Source: an uncultured Gemmatimonadota bacterium
Lineage (GTDB): Bacteria > SM23-81 > DAOVCL01
Direction: 5' to 3'
NCBI GenBank assembly: GCA_964626665.1
Contig: CAZVGK010000003.1
Location: 96,001 to 160,000, forward strand
Length of the DNA stretch: 64,000 nucleotides
This document shows, piece by piece, positions 7,660 through 61,662 of the stretch. The position numbers and the translations under genes are program-made. The notes beneath the pieces are model-generated. The model was not told the origin of the DNA and ran no database searches. It saw only the letters and a list, made by a program, of their open reading frames with translations. Positions within the stretch are counted from its first letter, which is position 1; every line of letters begins with the position of its first letter.

Positions 7660-8040
7660 AATACTTTGGACGTAGATCAATGTAGATCAAAAGGATAAAT
7701 CCAGACTATACGCTGGGGAACCACGAGATTTCACGAGATTGTCACCAGATATTCAGAATAAAGATCCTCACCAAATCAGCAATCTATGATTAAACTCACA
7801 GATCAATCCCCAACAGCTCCCTCAAATCGGAGGAGAGGTCTCAGACCTTTCGAAAGCTGTCAGCCCCGTTCCGACGGGATTCCTGGCGGAAGAGGTAACT
7901 CCTGATGGGCACACTTTTTAAGAAAACACCGAATGACACTAAAATCCCTATCCACAAGGAATAGACAGGGCCGTCAGGAGGTAACTCCTGACGGCACATT
8001 TTAGAGACAAGTTTTGTTTATCCTGTTTATCCTGTCCAAG
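7660..8040. repeat. Intergenic mosaic of palindromic repeats between gcvPA and gcvPB
   Basis: Solo AACCACGAGATTTCACGAGAT arm (7719-7750), GTCAGGAGGTAACTCCTGAC palindrome (~7973), ATCCTGTTTATCCTGTC. Confidence 0.7.
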
Positions 8041-32287: not shown

Positions 32288-32509
32288 ACCACGGAACCTC
32301 ACGGAACTACACGGATGTTTTTATCAACGAATTCATTACTCATTTTTAATCTTTTTCCGTGCTACTCCGTGGTCATCCCTGGTGAATCTACCACGGAATC
32401 TCACGGAGAAAAGCAATTATGAATTGAGAATTAAGAACGAAATTTATGCTGTTATTCCTGATTTCTGTAGACTGATCCTTGATTTTGTTTTTCTGTGCTA
32501 GTCCGTGGT
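32288..32509 (+). repeat. Two tandem CCACGG-arm elements
   Basis: 32288-32383 and 32390-32509, each with ACCACGGAA..TCACGGA left arms and TCCGTGGT-type right arms. Confidence 0.8.
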
Positions 32510-34764
32510 GAAATATTATCATTTTTGTTTAACTCAGCTATAATCTTTTCTGGGGTTGCCGGAAGGTCTCTTATCCTGATGCCGGTGGCATCAAATATCG
32601 CATTAGTAATTGCCGGGGCTACTCCAATTAGGGGCTGTTCCCCCAACCCCTTCGCCCCAAATGGCCCTTCAGGATAAGGGTCCTCAACAAAAACCGAGAC
32701 TATCTCCGGTGTGTCCTTCGCGGTAGGAAGTATGTAAGTGGAGAAATTAGTATTCAAAATCTTGCCTCCCCTGGAGATCATATCCTCAAAGAGGGCATAT
32801 CCAACCGCCTGTAGTATTCCACCCTCCACCTGCCCAGTTGCGGTTTGCGGGTTAATCACCCTCCCCACATCGTGGACGGCAATGATCTTTTTGACCGTTA
32901 CCTCACCGGTAAACATATTCACCTCAACCTCCGCTATGTTTGTCCCTGTGGAGTAAACGAAATATGGTTTCCCCTGACCGGTGGCTTTGTTCCAGGAGGT
33001 GGGCGGAGCCTTATACCACCCCTGAGAGGACATCACCATCTTTTCCTTAAAACATTCCCTGATCACATCATTTATATCTATCCTCTTGGCTCTACACAAG
33101 GCATATCCATCTTTCAATTTAACCTTCGCCCGCGGAGACTTTAACATTTTAGCCGCCACCTCCCCGATGCTTTTCTTTATCGGCCTTGAGGCTTCTATCA
33201 GGGCATTTCCCGACATCACGGTGGCCCGAGAGGCCACCGTGGGGCCACTATCCGGCACCCTTGTTGTATCCGTAGGAATCATCGATACCCTCTCATATTC
33301 AATCCCCAATTCATTGGCCAAAATCTGAGAAAGCACGGTCTCCATACCCTGGCCCATTTCGGTGGTGCCCACCGCAAAGTTCACAGAACCATCAGAGAGA
33401 ACACTCACCCACGCCCCTGCTTTGGCCAGGTGTTTCCCCCCAGCCCCTAAGCCCACCCCATAATAGTTACAGGCTACTCCCAAACCCCTTCTTTCATATC
33501 CATTTGAACTTTTTTTCTTCCCCTTCCATCCAATGCGGGCTGCTTCTCTCAAAGTTTTTTCCAACTCTATGCTTTCCTTGATAAGGTGTCCTGTAACCGT
33601 CCTATCGCCCTTTTTCAATATGTTTCTTAACCTAAATTCAATGAGGTCAATGTGCAATTTGTGGGCAAGTTCATCCATCTGAGATTCAATGGCGAAGGTT
33701 ACCTGAGGCGTACCAAACCCCCTAAATGCCCCACAGGGAACGGTATTGGTGGTTAGCGCATAGGAATCCACCTTCACATTAAGGCATTTGTATGGCCCTA
33801 CCGCATGGACTGTTCCCCGCCAGAGGACAACTGGGCTTAAGGTGCTATAAGCGCCAGAGTTGAGGACATATTTTACCTCAACAGCGTTGAGATAACCATC
33901 TTTAGTAACCCCGGATTTGTAATCAATTACTGCGGGATGACGCTTACTCATAGACTCTATGTCCTCTTCTCGGGAATAGATAAGCTTGGCCGGTCTTTTG
34001 GTCCAGAAAGCAACCAAAGCGGCCTGAGAGGCCACCAGGGAAGGAACATCCTCTTTGCCTCCAAATGCCCCACCAGTGGTGGTCTGGATTACCTCTACCT
34101 TGCTGAAAGGAACTCCCAGGATATGGGAGACAGCATTTTGCACATAAAAAGGACACTGCATAGAGCCATAAATCAGCATTCGATCCTCATAGGGAACAGC
34201 AATCATTCCCTGGGGCTCTATGTAGGCATGTTCCTGGTAGGAGGTTGTATACCTGTGTGTGACAACGAGGTCGCACTCCGCAAATCCCCTTTGAACATCT
34301 CCCCTTCTTATCCTGTGATGGGAGAATATATTATCTTTACCATAAATTTTCGGCGATTCCTTTTTCATCGCTATTAAGGGATCAAGAAGGGGCTCAAGCT
34401 CCTCATATTCAACCCTTACCTTCTGGGAGGCCTCCTCAATTGCCTCCCTATCCTCCCCCGCTATCAGGGCAATCGGTTCACCTATATACCTCACCTCTTT
34501 TTCGGCGAGCAGTGGTTGATCCATAAGAACTATGGGCACTACATTGGCTCCCGGAATAGATTCAGAGGTAAGGACAGCCACTATCCCCTTAACGGTTTTC
34601 GCCTCTGAGGGGTCGATGCTTTTGATCAAGCCATAAGGTAAAGGACTACGCACCACCTTAACCCAAAGCATATTTGGAAAGGAGAGGTCATCGATGAATA
34701 TTGCCTTGCCGGTGACCTTTAACCTCACATCTTTCCTTATCTCACTTTTCCCAATAAAGCTCAT
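32452..34764 (-). CDS. Xanthine dehydrogenase family Mo-binding subunit (XdhA-like)
   Basis: QEHAYIEP, SMQCP, GGAFGGK, AFRGFG, TVASR, GAKGLGE. Confidence 0.92.
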   Translation of the reverse strand: MSFIGKSEIRKDVRLKVTGKAIFIDDLSFPNMLWVKVVRSPLPYGLIKSIDPSEAKTVKGIVAVLTSESIPGANVVPIVLMDQPLLAEKEVRYIGEPIALIAGEDREAIEEASQKVRVEYEELEPLLDPLIAMKKESPKIYGKDNIFSHHRIRRGDVQRGFAECDLVVTHRYTTSYQEHAYIEPQGMIAVPYEDRMLIYGSMQCPFYVQNAVSHILGVPFSKVEVIQTTTGGAFGGKEDVPSLVASQAALVAFWTKRPAKLIYSREEDIESMSKRHPAVIDYKSGVTKDGYLNAVEVKYVLNSGAYSTLSPVVLWRGTVHAVGPYKCLNVKVDSYALTTNTVPCGAFRGFGTPQVTFAIESQMDELAHKLHIDLIEFRLRNILKKGDRTVTGHLIKESIELEKTLREAARIGWKGKKKSSNGYERRGLGVACNYYGVGLGAGGKHLAKAGAWVSVLSDGSVNFAVGTTEMGQGMETVLSQILANELGIEYERVSMIPTDTTRVPDSGPTVASRATVMSGNALIEASRPIKKSIGEVAAKMLKSPRAKVKLKDGYALCRAKRIDINDVIRECFKEKMVMSSQGWYKAPPTSWNKATGQGKPYFVYSTGTNIAEVEVNMFTGEVTVKKIIAVHDVGRVINPQTATGQVEGGILQAVGYALFEDMISRGGKILNTNFSTYILPTAKDTPEIVSVFVEDPYPEGPFGAKGLGEQPLIGVAPAITNAIFDATGIRIRDLPATPEKIIAELNKNDNISPRTSTEKQNQGSVYRNQE

Positions 34765-34792
34765 CTTATGGGGAAGTCTCCTATTTTTAAGA

Positions 34793-35222
34793 AACCACAA
34801 GATTACACAAGATTTTCACGAGATTATCCTTCTTTCCTCCAATTTTTCTTTGCCAAAATTGAAAAGTAATCCAATTCTATATTTTGTAGCCTTCAAATAA
34901 TGCATCAACTGCGCCTCATCCACCTTTGTTAAACCAGAGGTAGCTTTAATCTCAACAATAACCTTCCCATCCACTACCAAATCAGCTCTATACTTTTTAG
35001 GAATTAAGTGGTCTTTATAATAGATATCGATCTCAACTTGTTTCTGGAAAGGAATTCTTTGCAGCCTTAATTCATAGCATAGAGCTTCTTCATAGACATA
35101 TTCCAGGAAACCGTTTCCTAATTCATTATGGACTTCCATCGCCGCACCAATGATTCTGTAAGTCAGATCTTTATATAACCATTTGTCATCATCTGTGCTC
35201 ATCTTGTGTTAATCTTGTGGTT
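34793..35222 (-). mobile_element. Putative GxxExxY cassette with inverted terminal arms
   Basis: Arm 34793-34824 AACCACAAGATTACACAAGATTTTCACGAGAT; reverse complement of arm 35191-35222 is AACCACAAGATTAACACAAGATGAGCACAGAT. Confidence 0.65.
34816..35202 (-). CDS. GxxExxY protein (PD-(D/E)XK nuclease fold)
   Basis: IIGAAMEVHNELGNGFLEYVYEEAL, RADLVV..KVIVEIKA, QL..YLKA, GLLFNFG. Confidence 0.93.
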   Translation of the reverse strand: MSTDDDKWLYKDLTYRIIGAAMEVHNELGNGFLEYVYEEALCYELRLQRIPFQKQVEIDIYYKDHLIPKKYRADLVVDGKVIVEIKATSGLTKVDEAQLMHYLKATKYRIGLLFNFGKEKLEERRIIS

Positions 35223-35804
35223 ACGAAAGCCTTTTATACACCTTTCATAATCCTCTTTTGTGTTGATATTAAGGACAACGTTCTTATCTCCCACGGGAAG
35301 CTCGACGACACTATCTCTATTCTCCTTAATCACGAATCGAGCTCCAATGTCCTCCGGGGCATTCATCAACTCCTTTATATATTTGGAGTTAAAGCCAACT
35401 GGATGTCCCCTTTTGCCTTTGTATTTCGGAAGAACTATCGGGGACCCCTTTTTAAGGAGGTCAACAATTGCCTGGTAAGTAGTCACTGAAACCAGAGGAT
35501 GATCCACAAGGACCATCAGAAAAGCATCTATGTCTGAGGAGAGAAGGTTCAATCCAACCTTCAGGGAGAAGAGCTGTCCCCTTTCATAATTATCGTTTAC
35601 TAGAGACTTTACATCTGCGGGAAGATGCGACTTAATCTCTCTTGCCTTATGGCCTAAAACGACGACGATCTCCCTTAACCCTGCCCTTTTTAAGCTTTCT
35701 ATAATAGTATTTAGAAAGGTGGACCCTCCGAGGGGCAAAAGGGATTTTGGAATGCCCATTCTCTCCGATTTACCTGCTGCTAAAATTATCGCCGCGATCT
35801 TCAT
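35199..35804 (-). CDS. mocA: Molybdenum cofactor cytidylyltransferase (MocA-like)
   Basis: ILAAGKSERMG.PK.LL, N.NY..GQ..SL, LVDHP, GHPV; xdh context. Confidence 0.8.
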   Translation of the reverse strand: MKIAAIILAAGKSERMGIPKSLLPLGGSTFLNTIIESLKRAGLREIVVVLGHKAREIKSHLPADVKSLVNDNYERGQLFSLKVGLNLLSSDIDAFLMVLVDHPLVSVTTYQAIVDLLKKGSPIVLPKYKGKRGHPVGFNSKYIKELMNAPEDIGARFVIKENRDSVVELPVGDKNVVLNINTKEDYERCIKGFRNHKINTR

Positions 35805-35814
35805 TACAAAGGAT

Positions 35815-36555
35815 TTATAGCCTTATATTGATCTTTCGTCCCCATTTCCTAATTCCCTGGGTATTGGCACCAAGTGAAACTGTCTGAAGTAAATTTTCTG
35901 AGTCAACCACCTCCATACCCGAAAGCAAAGTTATCCCATGATCCTTCAATACCTCCGGAATCATAGGTGTTGTTGGTCCTATTATTGCCACGGTTCTGGC
36001 ATTAGCACAGAGGGGAAGTAACCTATCAATTGTTTTATTTGTGAAGGATGTTCCGCTGATAACTATCACTTCACATTTGGGGAGAAGCAGAGGCTCAGCC
36101 CAGTCCGGCCTATACCCCCTTAGTCCATCGATGGGGTAACGTTCAAATACATATAGCTCTTTGGATAGTTTACGCAATTCTGGGATAAGTGGTAAAAAGG
36201 AACCTACCATACAAACTGTATCCCCACTGGTAACATCGAAAAATTGCAAGGCGTTGCCCTCAAAGAGGAGATCACTATCCACTTCGGAGAGTGCATTCAC
36301 CGTGGCCATTCCTATTGCAGCCATAAGAAAATTGTCTGAAGTTGATAACTCCAAACATTTAATAGACTTACCGTATAACATCTGAGGTTTTAGGTGAGGA
36401 AGGGGATGGGCAAGCTCTCTGACCAATGTGGAGGCGAGGCCACATCTTCCACTATCTAATTTCACCGCCGTCAAACACAGTCCTACTCTTATATCGACGA
36501 TTTCGTGTTCTTTTGCCCTGTCCTGCAGGGAGTCGATTATGTCACCTACAAGCAT
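35815..36555 (-). CDS. DUF364-family Rossmann-like protein
   Basis: G..GLA, IGMATVNAL, VG.F.PL, SGT...NKTID.LL, IGPTTPM. Confidence 0.75.
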   Translation of the reverse strand: MLVGDIIDSLQDRAKEHEIVDIRVGLCLTAVKLDSGRCGLASTLVRELAHPLPHLKPQMLYGKSIKCLELSTSDNFLMAAIGMATVNALSEVDSDLLFEGNALQFFDVTSGDTVCMVGSFLPLIPELRKLSKELYVFERYPIDGLRGYRPDWAEPLLLPKCEVIVISGTSFTNKTIDRLLPLCANARTVAIIGPTTPMIPEVLKDHGITLLSGMEVVDSENLLQTVSLGANTQGIRKWGRKINIRL

Positions 36556-36597
36556 GTTGATAGATTATCAGAAGACCAGAGAATCAGAACGAGATTA

Positions 36598-37403
36598 TCA
36601 GATTCTCTTGGCACCTTTCCGGTTACTTTGGTCCCTCTTTTCTGCGATTCTCGCTATCAAACCGTTTAACCCGCGGATTATCTCCTCATACTCATCAATC
36701 ATTGCCTGAGCCTGAAAATCAGATAAATAATGCTTATCTTCCATTTCCCTCAAATGATTTTGTGTTTCTCCAGATTCCTTTCTTGCTGTATAAAACCCTT
36801 TTATTTTATTGTTGTAATAGTAACTTGAATTACCTTCGGCAATATTATCCGCCACAGACTTTGACGAGCGTTCAATTTGACCGCGGAGTACATATTTTTC
36901 ATTCGGGGGTAGTGTCTTACAAATCTCATGAATTTCTAGCATTAGCTTATGTGCCTTTTGCCATACCCATAACTTTTCATGTCTGGGAGTTATCCCCCTC
37001 TTCTTATCATAATTTTGGGTGGCGTAGTCAAAATTGTTGCTAAGCAGATCTTTGAAATCCAGAATCTTTAAGTAAATCAACGCCTTCTGTAGTATAGTCG
37101 TTCAAATAAGGTCTTATCACTTACCACAGGAGGTCAGAATGAATAAATCCAGGGAACGGTTGCAGTACTCAAGTTGCTATGGACTCCATAATAGACCTTA
37201 TGATTCCTTCCATGATACCTGTCAGGCAACTCTAAAGTAGTATAGATTTAAGACGTTTACAGCCTCTCTTAAAAGGAACAGACACAAGATCGATAAAAAC
37301 CACTTTAGTTAGCTAAGGCGGACACCCAAAATATCAACTGGATCGGATTCAGTCAGAAGCCTCATTAGCAACAATTTTGACTACGCCACCAATTTTGTGC
37401 CAT
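36598..37403 (-). pseudogene. Four-helix-bundle (23S rRNA IVP/Avd-like) gene interrupted near its 5' end by a MITE
   Basis: L.VWQKA..L, LP..EKY.L..Q..RS..SV..NIAEG; removing 37018-37390 and one TSD restores ATG GCA CAA AAT TAT GAT AAG (MAQNYDKK...). Confidence 0.8.
37018..37390. mobile_element. 373-bp MITE / internally deleted IS
   Basis: 26-bp perfect TIR GGTGGCGTAGTCAAAATTGTTGCTAA (37018-37043, 37365-37390); 7-bp direct repeat AATTTTG on both flanks. Confidence 0.9.
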
Positions 37404-37413
37404 AATTTTTCTG

Positions 37414-37920
37414 TTATTCTGATGCTCTCGTTCTGCTATTCTGTAATCTGATATTCTTCTCTATGAGCTCTGGGATAAACTCCCTGTTATCCTCAGTAAC
37501 TTCCATAATAACCACTTCGTGCAGCGATCTAATCCTATCCAAGAATGGATTAGACTCCTTCTTCAGCACTCCCAACACGCTGCGGTCACTGTTGATTGCA
37601 GAGAAAACCGCCTTTTGAAATTCCTTACAGTCAAGTTCGAACCTCCCCAGCTCATCCATTATAATGATGTCCCTCTTAACAAGCGCCATCTCTATAGCAG
37701 ATTTCCCCAACCCTTCAAAGCCCTCCTTGATAATTTCCCAGTTTAACCCATTTCTTCTCGCTACAACTTCAGTTCTATCGGATATTAAATCTCGGAGCAA
37801 AACCAAATTAGACTCTATTTTAGTCTGAAACCCTCCATAGGAGAGGTCAATGCTCTGCAGGAATTCCCTGATGGCTGTGCTCTTCCCTATACCAATCTTA
37901 CCAGTGAGGAAAATATTCAT
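37414..37920 (-). CDS. Nucleoside-triphosphatase (THEP1/NTPase_1 family)
   Basis: MNIFLTGKIGIGKST, GGF.T, IIMDELGRFE, NR. Confidence 0.85.
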   Translation of the reverse strand: MNIFLTGKIGIGKSTAIREFLQSIDLSYGGFQTKIESNLVLLRDLISDRTEVVARRNGLNWEIIKEGFEGLGKSAIEMALVKRDIIIMDELGRFELDCKEFQKAVFSAINSDRSVLGVLKKESNPFLDRIRSLHEVVIMEVTEDNREFIPELIEKNIRLQNSRTRASE

Positions 37921-49858: not shown

Positions 49859-50317
49859 CACCACGGAATTACCTGGCGCGGCAAAGCCGCAACCAAACAA
49901 GGGCCACAGATTACACGGATTTCACTGACAGAAAAAACTACTATCGGAGGTCGTCGCTGATCACCTACTGCGGGTAGGGGCTTGATTTATCAAGCCCGTT
50001 CGGGTCGCATAAATGCGACCCCTACACTTCTACCCGGCTTTAGCCCTATCTTTTCAACCTACGGGCCTGAAGGCCCAGGGATAACCAGCATAAACTTCAT
50101 TTTTAATTCTCAATTCTTGCAAAGGGAGGAGATATTCGGAAAGATTTTTCTCTAATCTGTGGAAATCTTTGCATATCTGCGGTTTATATGTGTATTGTAA
50201 TTCTTATCTCTTTTCCCGTGTAATTCCGTGAATTTCCGTGGTAAATTATCCATTCGTGTAGATTCGTCTATTCGTGTCATTCGTGTTCTATCAGTGAAAT
50301 CTGTGGAATTCCGTGGT
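49859..50317. repeat. Nested repeat mosaic including a GTAG REP doublet (49974-50025)
   Basis: Outer ACCACGGAATT/AATTCCGTGGT arms; GTAGGGGCTTGATTTATCAAGCCC + GGGTCGCATAAATGCGACCCCTAC; reversed CCACGG element. Confidence 0.8.
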
Positions 50318-61479: not shown

Positions 61480-61552
61480 CAGAGGTGGAAAGTGTGATAT
61501 TCCGGAGAGGTGGCAGAACCCCTGTTCTGCCACCTCGGTTTGAAAATAGCTC

Positions 61553-61656
61553 ACCACGGATAAACACGGAGTAACAAAGAAAATCAGGGATAGCCTACAT
61601 AAACCCCATTTTTAATTCTCAATTTATAATTGCCTTTCCCCGTGAGATTCCGTGGT
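61553..61656 (-). repeat. CCACGG-arm MITE-like element (reversed)
   Basis: ACCACGGATAAACACGGA ... TTAATTCTCAATTTATAATTGC ... TCCGTGGT. Confidence 0.75.
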
Positions 61657-61662
61657 GAGCTC

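Follow-up and report, generated by a model that had tools for sequence, protein, structure and literature searches.

The DNA examined here, referred to as the window, is a stretch of 64,000 nucleotides (nt) from an uncultured Gemmatimonadota bacterium (assembly GCA_964626665.1, contig CAZVGK010000003.1), and our subject is a cassette within it, in which a small nuclease gene of the GxxExxY family is bracketed by inverted arrays of a repeated short word. The cassette lies between a mocA-like gene and a gene for an xdh-type molybdopterin-binding subunit, all three genes being on the minus strand in the list of open reading frames (ORFs), as are the arms and the other features of this junction. 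The cassette gene (34816..35202) encodes a GxxExxY/PDDEXK_3 nuclease of 128 amino acids (aa; PF13366, E 1.1e-42; TIGR04256, E 3.7e-45). The mocA-like gene (35199..35804), for a molybdenum cofactor cytidylyltransferase, matches the MocA-like NTP transferase family (PF12804, E 7.9e-34) and reaches 156.9 bits against TIGR03310, under the cut-off of 186.45 bits. The xdh-type subunit (32452..34764; 770 aa from the ATG at 34764) matches PF02738, PF20256 and PF01315, with pucD/XdhA as its top NCBIfam match, under equivalog cut-offs, and beyond it the operon continues with more genes of the xdh cluster (2Fe-2S subunit, XdhC).

The upstream (left) arm, AACCACAAGATTAACACAAGATGAGCACAGAT (35191..35222), is made up of the words CACAAGAT, CACAAGAT and CACAGAT, and the downstream (right) arm, ATCTCGTGAAAATCTTGTGTAATCTTGTGGTT (34793..34824), carries three words in the inverted orientation. 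Word starts lie 10-11 nt apart within each arm, and an inverted-repeat search finds the arms complementary over 13 nt at 100% and a further 19 nt at 84%. Exact CACRAGAT words number three in the downstream arm and two in the upstream arm, where the innermost word is the 7-base CACAGAT. The window holds 11 CACRAGAT words against 3.2 +/- 1.7 expected, a count that none of 100 shuffles reaches, and five of the 11 fall in the two arms. The cassette ATG (35202-35200) is within the upstream arm and overlaps the TGA of mocA (35201-35199) as ATGA, and the cassette TGA (34818-34816) is within the downstream arm. An earlier sequence-only reading of this DNA had described a 128-aa GxxExxY ORF of this kind, set between 32-nt inverted arms with three words each, coupled to mocA through ATGA and lying ahead of the xdh subunit. 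Its core is correct because the ORF, the inverted arms, the CACRAGAT excess and the positions of the ATG and TGA are all confirmed, as is the identity of both neighbours through their Pfam and NCBIfam matches.

Filled and empty alleles of the junction were sought with the mocA and xdh flanks in 41 genomes (40 relatives and G000, the window's own assembly), and an empty site was found in G002, which together with G001 is a congener of G000. G002 is the only genome to match both flanks (76% identity over the xdh part and 70% over the mocA part), and in it the two parts are 20 nt apart as against 467 nt in the window; its junction reads ..AAAGGACAGGGATGAGCGTC.., with mocA and xdh joined by an ATGA overlap and with arms and ORF absent. 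A search of public loci with the single 128-aa protein as query found cassette copies on four public contigs at the same mocA-xdh site (L121, L122, L123 and L131; 81-84% identity across mocA, cassette and xdh) and further copies at three other places, viz., site B (L124 and L125), site C (L126, which has an in-frame stop) and site D (L037, from a metagenome-assembled genome titled Candidatus Stahlbacteria). The cassette thus occurs at four unrelated sites without common flanks. Copies at the other sites align to the window solely over 35223 down to 34773-34808, and they share a left extension, AGACTTTT..AATTTAACCAC, and a right extension, GTGGTTTCTTAAAAA.ACAAAACTTC. Because the flanks of these copies add the common extensions, we place the full mobile unit at about 34770..35232 (~463 nt, with ends good to about +/-3 nt), where it would comprise the left extension, left arm, gene, right arm and right extension. 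The discrete, mobile and selfish unit of the sequence-only reading is therefore retained, and its size of 430 bp is replaced, since the unit reaches beyond the arms.

At site D, the flanking genes are 50 nt apart in an empty relative (G062) and 507 nt apart in L037. The empty site reads CACTGATGCTAATC (short form CACTGATGCTA) and the filled one CATTGAT[unit]TGATGCTTCTA (short form CATTGAT[unit]TGATGCTT), which gives a target duplication of 4 bp, TGAT, precisely at a TGATG stop/start overlap. Neither of the empty sites, in G002 and G062, contains arms. At the mocA-xdh site the sequence ATAAA (35233..35237) could be the left copy of a target duplication of 5 bp, perhaps representing the last codons of the ancestral mocA; it also precedes the unit in L123 and is present in the empty G002 site. 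The candidate right copy, ATAAG (34765..34769), stands directly before the xdh ATG and is a weak match, at 4/5 positions, and the same-site relatives have ATAAA on the left and CCAAA or GCAAA in place of ATAAG. These flanks fit a decayed 5-bp duplication and are no proof of one. It had been stated earlier that the cassette lacks a target duplication, and this is so only right beside the arms, not for the longer unit with its ATAAA/ATAAG flanks or for cleaner copies with duplications of 4-5 bp. Contigs from four salt-marsh runs contain the filled form and a variant, about 89% identical, that also carries the cassette, and among these contigs, which drop rare variants, there is no empty joint. 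A 12-nt direct repeat, CAYAAGATGAGC (34759-34770 and 35197-35208), was also considered as the target duplication and rejected: its left copy belongs to the arm conserved at all sites, and its right copy is not retained in the variant strain or in L121-L123. Thus, the mocA-xdh cassette is an insertion, the site being empty in a congener and the same unit being present elsewhere, with target duplications of 4-5 bp in clean cases.

The cassette also differs from its flanks in history. Between the window and L121, L122 and L123, synonymous divergence (dS) is 0.21-0.37 for the cassette ORF, 0.76-0.96 for xdh (382 codons) and 0.88-1.20 for mocA, i.e., 3-4 times lower in the cassette than in the flanking genes, a contrast to be read with the caveats that repeats may be mis-joined in metagenome contigs and that constraint on the nucleic acid could depress dS. 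DNA identity to the same three contigs is 0.90-0.94 for the cassette ORF, 0.87-0.92 for the unit overall and 0.82-0.83 for xdh, with 0.76-0.78 for mocA (L122 and L123), and the steps in identity coincide with the unit ends. L121 and L122 are 99.1% identical in xdh, whereas their cassette ORFs are just 94.8% identical. Taken together, the low dS, the identity steps and the contrast between L121 and L122 indicate that the cassette was exchanged or re-acquired after the host lineages had split. In addition, the window ORF and the ORF of L124 at site B differ less (dS 0.52) than do the orthologous flanks among themselves.

The 128-aa protein is a clear member of its family, with 145.5 bits to PF13366 (cut-off 22) over profile positions 1-116 of 117 and 153 bits to TIGR04256 (cut-off 35), and a sequence search against the PDB gave no match below E 0.5. 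An AlphaFold2 model was obtained with a mean predicted local distance difference test score of 94.3 and a predicted template-modelling (TM) score of 0.87. The top PDB match found by Foldseek is Cas4 SSO0001 (PDB identifier 4ic1; E 4.3e-4, TM-score 0.52-0.60), followed by Cas4 Pcal_0546, lambda exonuclease and RecB-type domains, with 4r5q and 3slp as the next PDB entries; all are PD-(D/E)XK nucleases, and the predicted model has both the core fold and the catalytic residues of that superfamily. Among 83 sequences, no variation is seen at E34, D74 or K86, and conservation reaches at least 90% at E84, Q98 and Y102, a set (E..D..ExK..QxxxY) that we take to be the motifs of the RecB family, including QxxxY. 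The GxxExxY protein is very likely an active nuclease. The ratio of nonsynonymous to synonymous substitution rates is 0.06-0.16 in 20 of the 21 pairs formed by seven close copies and 0.37 in the other pair, and on these ratios the gene is maintained by purifying selection.

Other copies in the same genome carry arms of their own. G000 holds four full-length GxxExxY genes and several broken ones, and all six copies examined have repeat arms, with inverted word arrays in five of the six. The arm word is CACRAGAT in the window copy (contig C3), CACGAAT in two broken copies (C4:52222 and C6:115116), CGCAAAG in the copy on C15 and AAGAGAT, with ACAGGGAT ends, in C4:128170, and the copy on C12 is flanked on each side by one and the same hairpin in direct orientation. 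Genome-wide, there are 26 CACRAGAT, 51 CACGAAT and 50 CGCAAAG arrays, an array being at least two words within 25 nt. Many of the gene-less (solo) CGCAAAG repeats retain the last ~27 nt of a GxxExxY ORF (..KRLVNNL*) and some CACGAAT solos retain both gene ends, and these solos are therefore deletion derivatives.

The gene-less CACRAGAT family in G000 has 39 left ends, 40 right ends and 18 complete pairs, with the same layout of 3+3 words as the cassette and lengths of about 160-400 nt. For example, a core copy of 184 nt consists of CCCAGATTATGC..GGAAAC, three words, ~90 nt, three ATCTGTG words and GTTCCTGCATATTTTGGG. The outer termini of the family (CCCGGATTATGC.. and ..GCATATTTTGGG) differ from those of the gene-bearing unit, because of which we consider it a cousin and not a simple deletion product of the window copy. 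Homology of its interior to the cassette ORF was considered and set aside, as the alignments outside the arms are weak and unconvincing. Duplications of at least 4 bp flank 13 of the 18 complete copies as compared with 52 of 306 permuted flank pairs (17%), and those of at least 5 bp flank nine of the 18 as compared with 19 of 306. In G001 and G002, two of the gene-less regions (L220 and L223) are either missing or replaced by other sequence, the junctions being too diverged or layered for a base-level check of the duplication. Within the window, the only further CACRAGAT array (7719-7750) belongs to a gene-less left end on the plus strand (7700..7750), which consists of the terminal part and the words CACGAGAT, CACGAGAT and CACCAGAT and has no matching right end nearby. 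The many empty arm pairs that had been reported for the window are thus an overstatement: there is this one array and there are two arm pairs with other words, the gene-less copies being a genome-wide feature.

To what extent this architecture extends to the family as a whole was surveyed with the best 80 public loci coding for relatives of the window protein, 75 of which have enough flank. At least three copies of one 7-mer (with at most one mismatch) upstream and its reverse complement downstream are present at 34 of the 75 loci, from many phyla, as against two of 176 displaced control pairs, and exact 6-mers give 26 of 75 loci and one of 60 controls. Inverted word arrays beside GxxExxY genes in other genomes, which the sequence-only reading had proposed to look for in the form of CACRGAT arrays, are therefore found well above the control level. 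The words are mostly spaced 9-12 nt apart, and some loci have complete hairpins on both sides in place of one arm each. A word could be assigned to 59 of the 83 proteins in a tree, on which 26 word changes occur as compared with 39.5 +/- 1.7 after shuffling (0 of 1000 shuffles as low), and single word clades cover several host phyla. This pattern of association shows that the gene and the arms travel together, and it falls short of proving recognition because relatives share labels.

The insertion has also altered the genes on either side. The last 10 codons of mocA in the window (FRNHKINTR and the stop) are encoded by the cassette, and three kinds of mocA tail are found among the five same-site copies: mocA ends ..CIKGFRNHKINTR at the ATGA in the window, ..CIKDF in L123, 29 nt ahead of the cassette ATG, and ..FVNLTTRLTQDEHR* in L121, L122 and L131, 11 nt into the cassette ORF. 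The 6 nt that bear the L123 stop are missing from the window. On the other side, an AGGAG ribosome-binding site for xdh (34778..34782) is located inside the right extension, and the AGGAGAC of the window corresponds to ACAAAAC in relatives at two sites (mocA-xdh and one other), so that the AGGAG is read as a secondary change in the window lineage. Because mocA tails and stops differ among the same-site lineages and AGGAGAC replaces the relatives' ACAAAAC, the ATGA coupling is, on this comparison, a derived, lineage-specific accident or repair and lies outside the element's design. The proposal that translational coupling is a feature minimizing polarity on the operon is weakened accordingly by the three tails and stop positions. 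In the flank survey, neighbour strands could be assessed at 51 loci; both neighbours are on one strand at 43, and the cassette is co-oriented with them at 39 of these 43.

Based on these observations, the window cassette probably represents a minimal, transposon-like mobile element, ~0.46 kb in length, that encodes a RecB/Cas4-like nuclease with the element's word arrays as substrate. This enzyme, which probably works as a multimer, would read the arrays of both arms and make cuts at the unit ends, staggered at the target, thereby freeing or copying the unit, and host repair or replication would finish the move. It may act in trans on gene-less copies with the same word, each paralog reading a different word. 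No promoter is evident within the cassette, which would be expressed by read-through, and the host perhaps tolerates it because insertion takes place in the direction of the operon, where translationally coupled genes meet. Insertion at such junctions would replace the last codons of the upstream gene and the ribosome-binding site of the downstream gene, and the overlap of the cassette ATG with the mocA stop, like the AGGAG ahead of xdh, would then be a later repair specific to the lineage.

Several points weigh against this account. The role of the nuclease is in its entirety an inference from linkage, paralog-specific words and intact catalytic motifs, and nucleases of the RecB/Cas4 type are not known to join DNA strands, so that completion of the reaction would fall to repair or replication by the host. 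The association between word and protein on the tree can arise from co-inheritance alone, and the low cassette dS could partly reflect nucleic-acid constraint or chimeric metagenome contigs. A target duplication is not evident at sites B and C, and at mocA-xdh the match is limited to four of five positions. Gene-less copies also occur where no intact gene with their word is seen: in a comparison of word pairs covering G000, G001 and G002, G001 has 19 CACRAGAT pairs and no cognate gene detected in its 90%-complete assembly, and CACGAAT solos are numerous in G000 though both cognate genes are broken. G002 has one CACRAGAT pair, and its sole GxxExxY gene is broken. The unlike outer termini of the gene-less and gene-bearing forms belong here as well.

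Some of these points would be accommodated if the gene were a passenger or had been domesticated, with the arms and gene-less repeats moved by an unlinked transposase or by host recombination at palindromes and the nuclease either riding along or serving the host in repeat maintenance, repair or defence. A host role has been argued for single-copy RAYTs, the transposases associated with repetitive extragenic palindromic (REP) sequences, and the retention of the cassette at one locus in at least four related lineages under purifying selection would suit such a role, as would the solo repeats in genomes or word families without an intact cognate gene and the differing termini of the solos. The best fold match being Cas4, with weak Cas4 profile matches at E 0.002, points the same way. 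We nevertheless regard this explanation as unlikely. Within one genome there are several words, each going with a different paralog, an arrangement that a single outside enzyme would not suit, and the unit, which travels intact from one unrelated site or phylum to another, contains no ORF besides this gene. Moreover, no conventional transposase with the ends of the gene-less family was seen among the 40 longest of 207 genome self-matches of at least 400 nt, of which one pair was inspected.

The synonymous contrast described above could also be produced by spread of the homing type, in which the nuclease would cut an empty target (a junction or an empty arm pair) and the gene would be copied in by repair through arm or flank homology; homing endonucleases with the PD-(D/E)XK fold are known. 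Occupation of the same nucleotide position in the window and L121-L123 by a cassette much less diverged than its surroundings, with steps at the unit ends, and the discordance between the xdh genes and the cassette ORFs of L121 and L122 would be natural outcomes of such copying. On the other hand, the flanks at the four sites are not shared, target duplications at site D and around solos are not expected from repair-copying, and the empty sites in G002 and G062 have no arms, making this an improbable alternative.

Finally, the cassette might be an intervening sequence at the RNA level, in which case the arms would pair in the transcript of the operon and the stem would be cut, by RNase III or by the nuclease itself, to release the ORF, much as ORF-bearing intervening sequences of 23S rRNA are released from RNA. 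The arms do form the outermost stem of the predicted transcript fold (-111.7 kcal/mol, z -3.3, with 0 of 100 shuffles as stable), and both the co-orientation with same-strand neighbours and the presence of a gene of the 23S intervening-sequence family with its own arms in the same operon are agreeable to this suggestion. Little credence can be given to it, in that all four word pairs that differ between arms in eight close copies are uncompensated and the innermost word of the left arm has 7 bases in every copy as against 8 in its partner, a stem does not call for a threefold repeat of one word at 10-11 nt, the presence/absence differences and the target duplications arise at the level of DNA, and an Rfam scan of 34400-37600 returned no family match (one chance-level microRNA hit). 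The stem that was earlier proposed to loop the ORF out of the mRNA is thus predicted thermodynamically and receives no support from covariation.

The gene of the 23S intervening-sequence family is itself part of a selfish-looking four-helix-bundle cassette on the minus strand (36555-37440; PF05635, E 7e-28), with an ORF at 36598-37080 whose likely ATG is near 36980 and which lies 1.4 kb from the GxxExxY cassette. Its words, read by eye, are (A/T)TCTGAT downstream (36545-36600) and the complementary ..CAGAA.. upstream (~37400-37440). Between this gene and its upstream arm, a gene-less element of ~370 nt (37011-37397) has been inserted, with perfect 26-nt terminal inverted repeats (TIRs), GGTGGCGTAGTCAAAATTGTTGCTAA, and a 7-bp direct duplication, CAAAATT, and pieces of it recur in G002 and G001. 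The distance from mocA to NTPase_1 is 95 nt in G002 and 1,633 nt in the window (35805-37427); G002 therefore has no DUF364/DUF4213 gene (35815-36555), four-helix-bundle cassette or nested repeat at this place, and the block may have been either gained in the window lineage or lost in G002.

Repeats inserted into repeats are also seen elsewhere in G000. The longer gene-less CACRAGAT copies (C31, C27, C3:95716-95991 and others) contain a nested hairpin element, CCCCGTTAAATAA...TTATTTAACGGGG, which sits between the second and third words of the right arm and is flanked by TTCA, and some copies have a second nested piece. At G001:C31:1330-1580 (L226), other palindromic inserts, e.g., ACATTTCGGAATTTCTTAGAAATTCCGAAATGT, follow the same GACCAATAAT flank after which G000 has a gene-less CACRAGAT element, so that one intergenic spot has been struck by different elements in the two genomes. 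The two arm pairs with other words in the window are at 49910-50309 (words CACGGAT/CACTGA, 352 nt between the arms) and 61548-61661 (word CACGGA, 60 nt between the arms), and no PF13366 match is reported for either. Among the 40 longest repeats of G000, the single pair above 90% identity is an IS-like element of 1.7 kb (C8:58281-59958 and C12:56540-58210; 96% identity) with an ORF of ~409 aa and ends, GAGGCTGTTTAAAAAT, unlike those of the gene-less family.

If the nuclease truly mobilizes its own arms, a PD-(D/E)XK enzyme alone would join the short list of prokaryotic transposase chemistries, the large family PF13366, annotated as of unknown function, would gain a function, and there would be an explanation for the source of many of the palindromic and word-array repeats found between genes in uncultured phyla. 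With its one gene and a word as its address, the element would also be a small and attractive model in which the sequence-specific recognition of DNA could be studied and perhaps re-targeted. For annotation, the cassette shows that an insert of this kind can supply an operon gene with its C-terminal tail, stop codon or ribosome-binding site. We further suggest, tentatively and as somewhat less than probable, that a new class of minimal prokaryotic transposon (~0.45 kb), distributed across many phyla, has GxxExxY proteins as its transposases, each a RecB/Cas4-like PD-(D/E)XK nuclease reading tandem words of 7-8 bases on both arms, with the word of each paralog serving as its 'address', that in many uncultured bacteria a large share of the palindromic and word-array repeats stems from these elements, and that the four-helix-bundle cassettes are a sister class of the same architecture.

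Literature searches for GxxExxY, PDDEXK_3, PF13366 and TIGR04256 found no description of such mobile elements, and searches combining RAYT or REPIN (a paired, hairpin-forming arrangement of REP sequences) with nuclease terms returned HUH-type systems only, in the accessible portions of the papers. The PF13366-type family is tabulated as 'Unknown' in one report (PMC3424549) and mentioned once in passing in another (PMC8934634), and the portions available of both do not treat its function or repeats. The ORF-bearing intervening sequences of 23S rRNA (PF05635) are comparable in that a small ORF is bracketed by inverted repeats in a transcribed unit, but they are located in a helix of the 23S rRNA, whereas the window cassette sits in a protein-coding operon and has an ORF of a different family. 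Tn7 employs a PD-(D/E)XK nuclease, TnsA, in transposition, has ends with several repeated protein-binding sites and makes a 5-bp duplication; it requires the DDE protein TnsB for strand transfer, along with TnsC/D/E, and the cassette encodes no TnsB, TnsC, TnsD or TnsE. Cas4, RecB and lambda exonuclease are the closest structural matches and have the motifs E..D..ExK..QxxxY in common with the GxxExxY protein, which, compared with them, is half the size, has no Fe-S cluster cysteines or CRISPR context and shows marginal sequence similarity.

Miniature inverted-repeat transposable elements (MITEs) and their autonomous insertion sequences share with the present system TIRs, short A/T-rich target duplications, many gene-less copies and nested insertions, and the combination of TIRs and a short target duplication is found both in the gene-less family and at site D. 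Unlike in MITE/parent pairs, the only gene of the full-length form is the 128-aa nuclease, with no recognized transposase of the DDE, serine, tyrosine or HUH type, and the outermost nucleotides are not conserved between gene-bearing and gene-less forms. In the REP/REPIN-RAYT systems ('REPtrons'; TnpA-REP, an HUH Y1 enzyme), RAYT genes are flanked by inverted short repeats with dispersed gene-less copies, as described in the available text of three papers (PMC5581495, PMC3479197, PMC3686654). The cassette and the REPtrons alike consist of a single small nuclease-type gene flanked by an inverted, dispersed short repeat, have tens of gene-less repeat copies and pair distinct paralogs with distinct repeat families. 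However, the cassette gene matches PF13366 as its only Pfam family and its enzyme fold is that of the RecB/Cas4-type PD-(D/E)XK nucleases, not HUH/Y1, and its arms are made of 2-4 tandem words of 7-8 bases at helical spacing, not a single tagged hairpin. The cassette family also shows target duplications of 4-5 bp, which IS200/IS605-type elements are not known to make, and sits co-oriented inside operons. Thus, the logic of the cassette resembles that of REP/RAYT and MITE/parent pairs, and the differences lie in the enzyme, the architecture of the arms and the target duplication.

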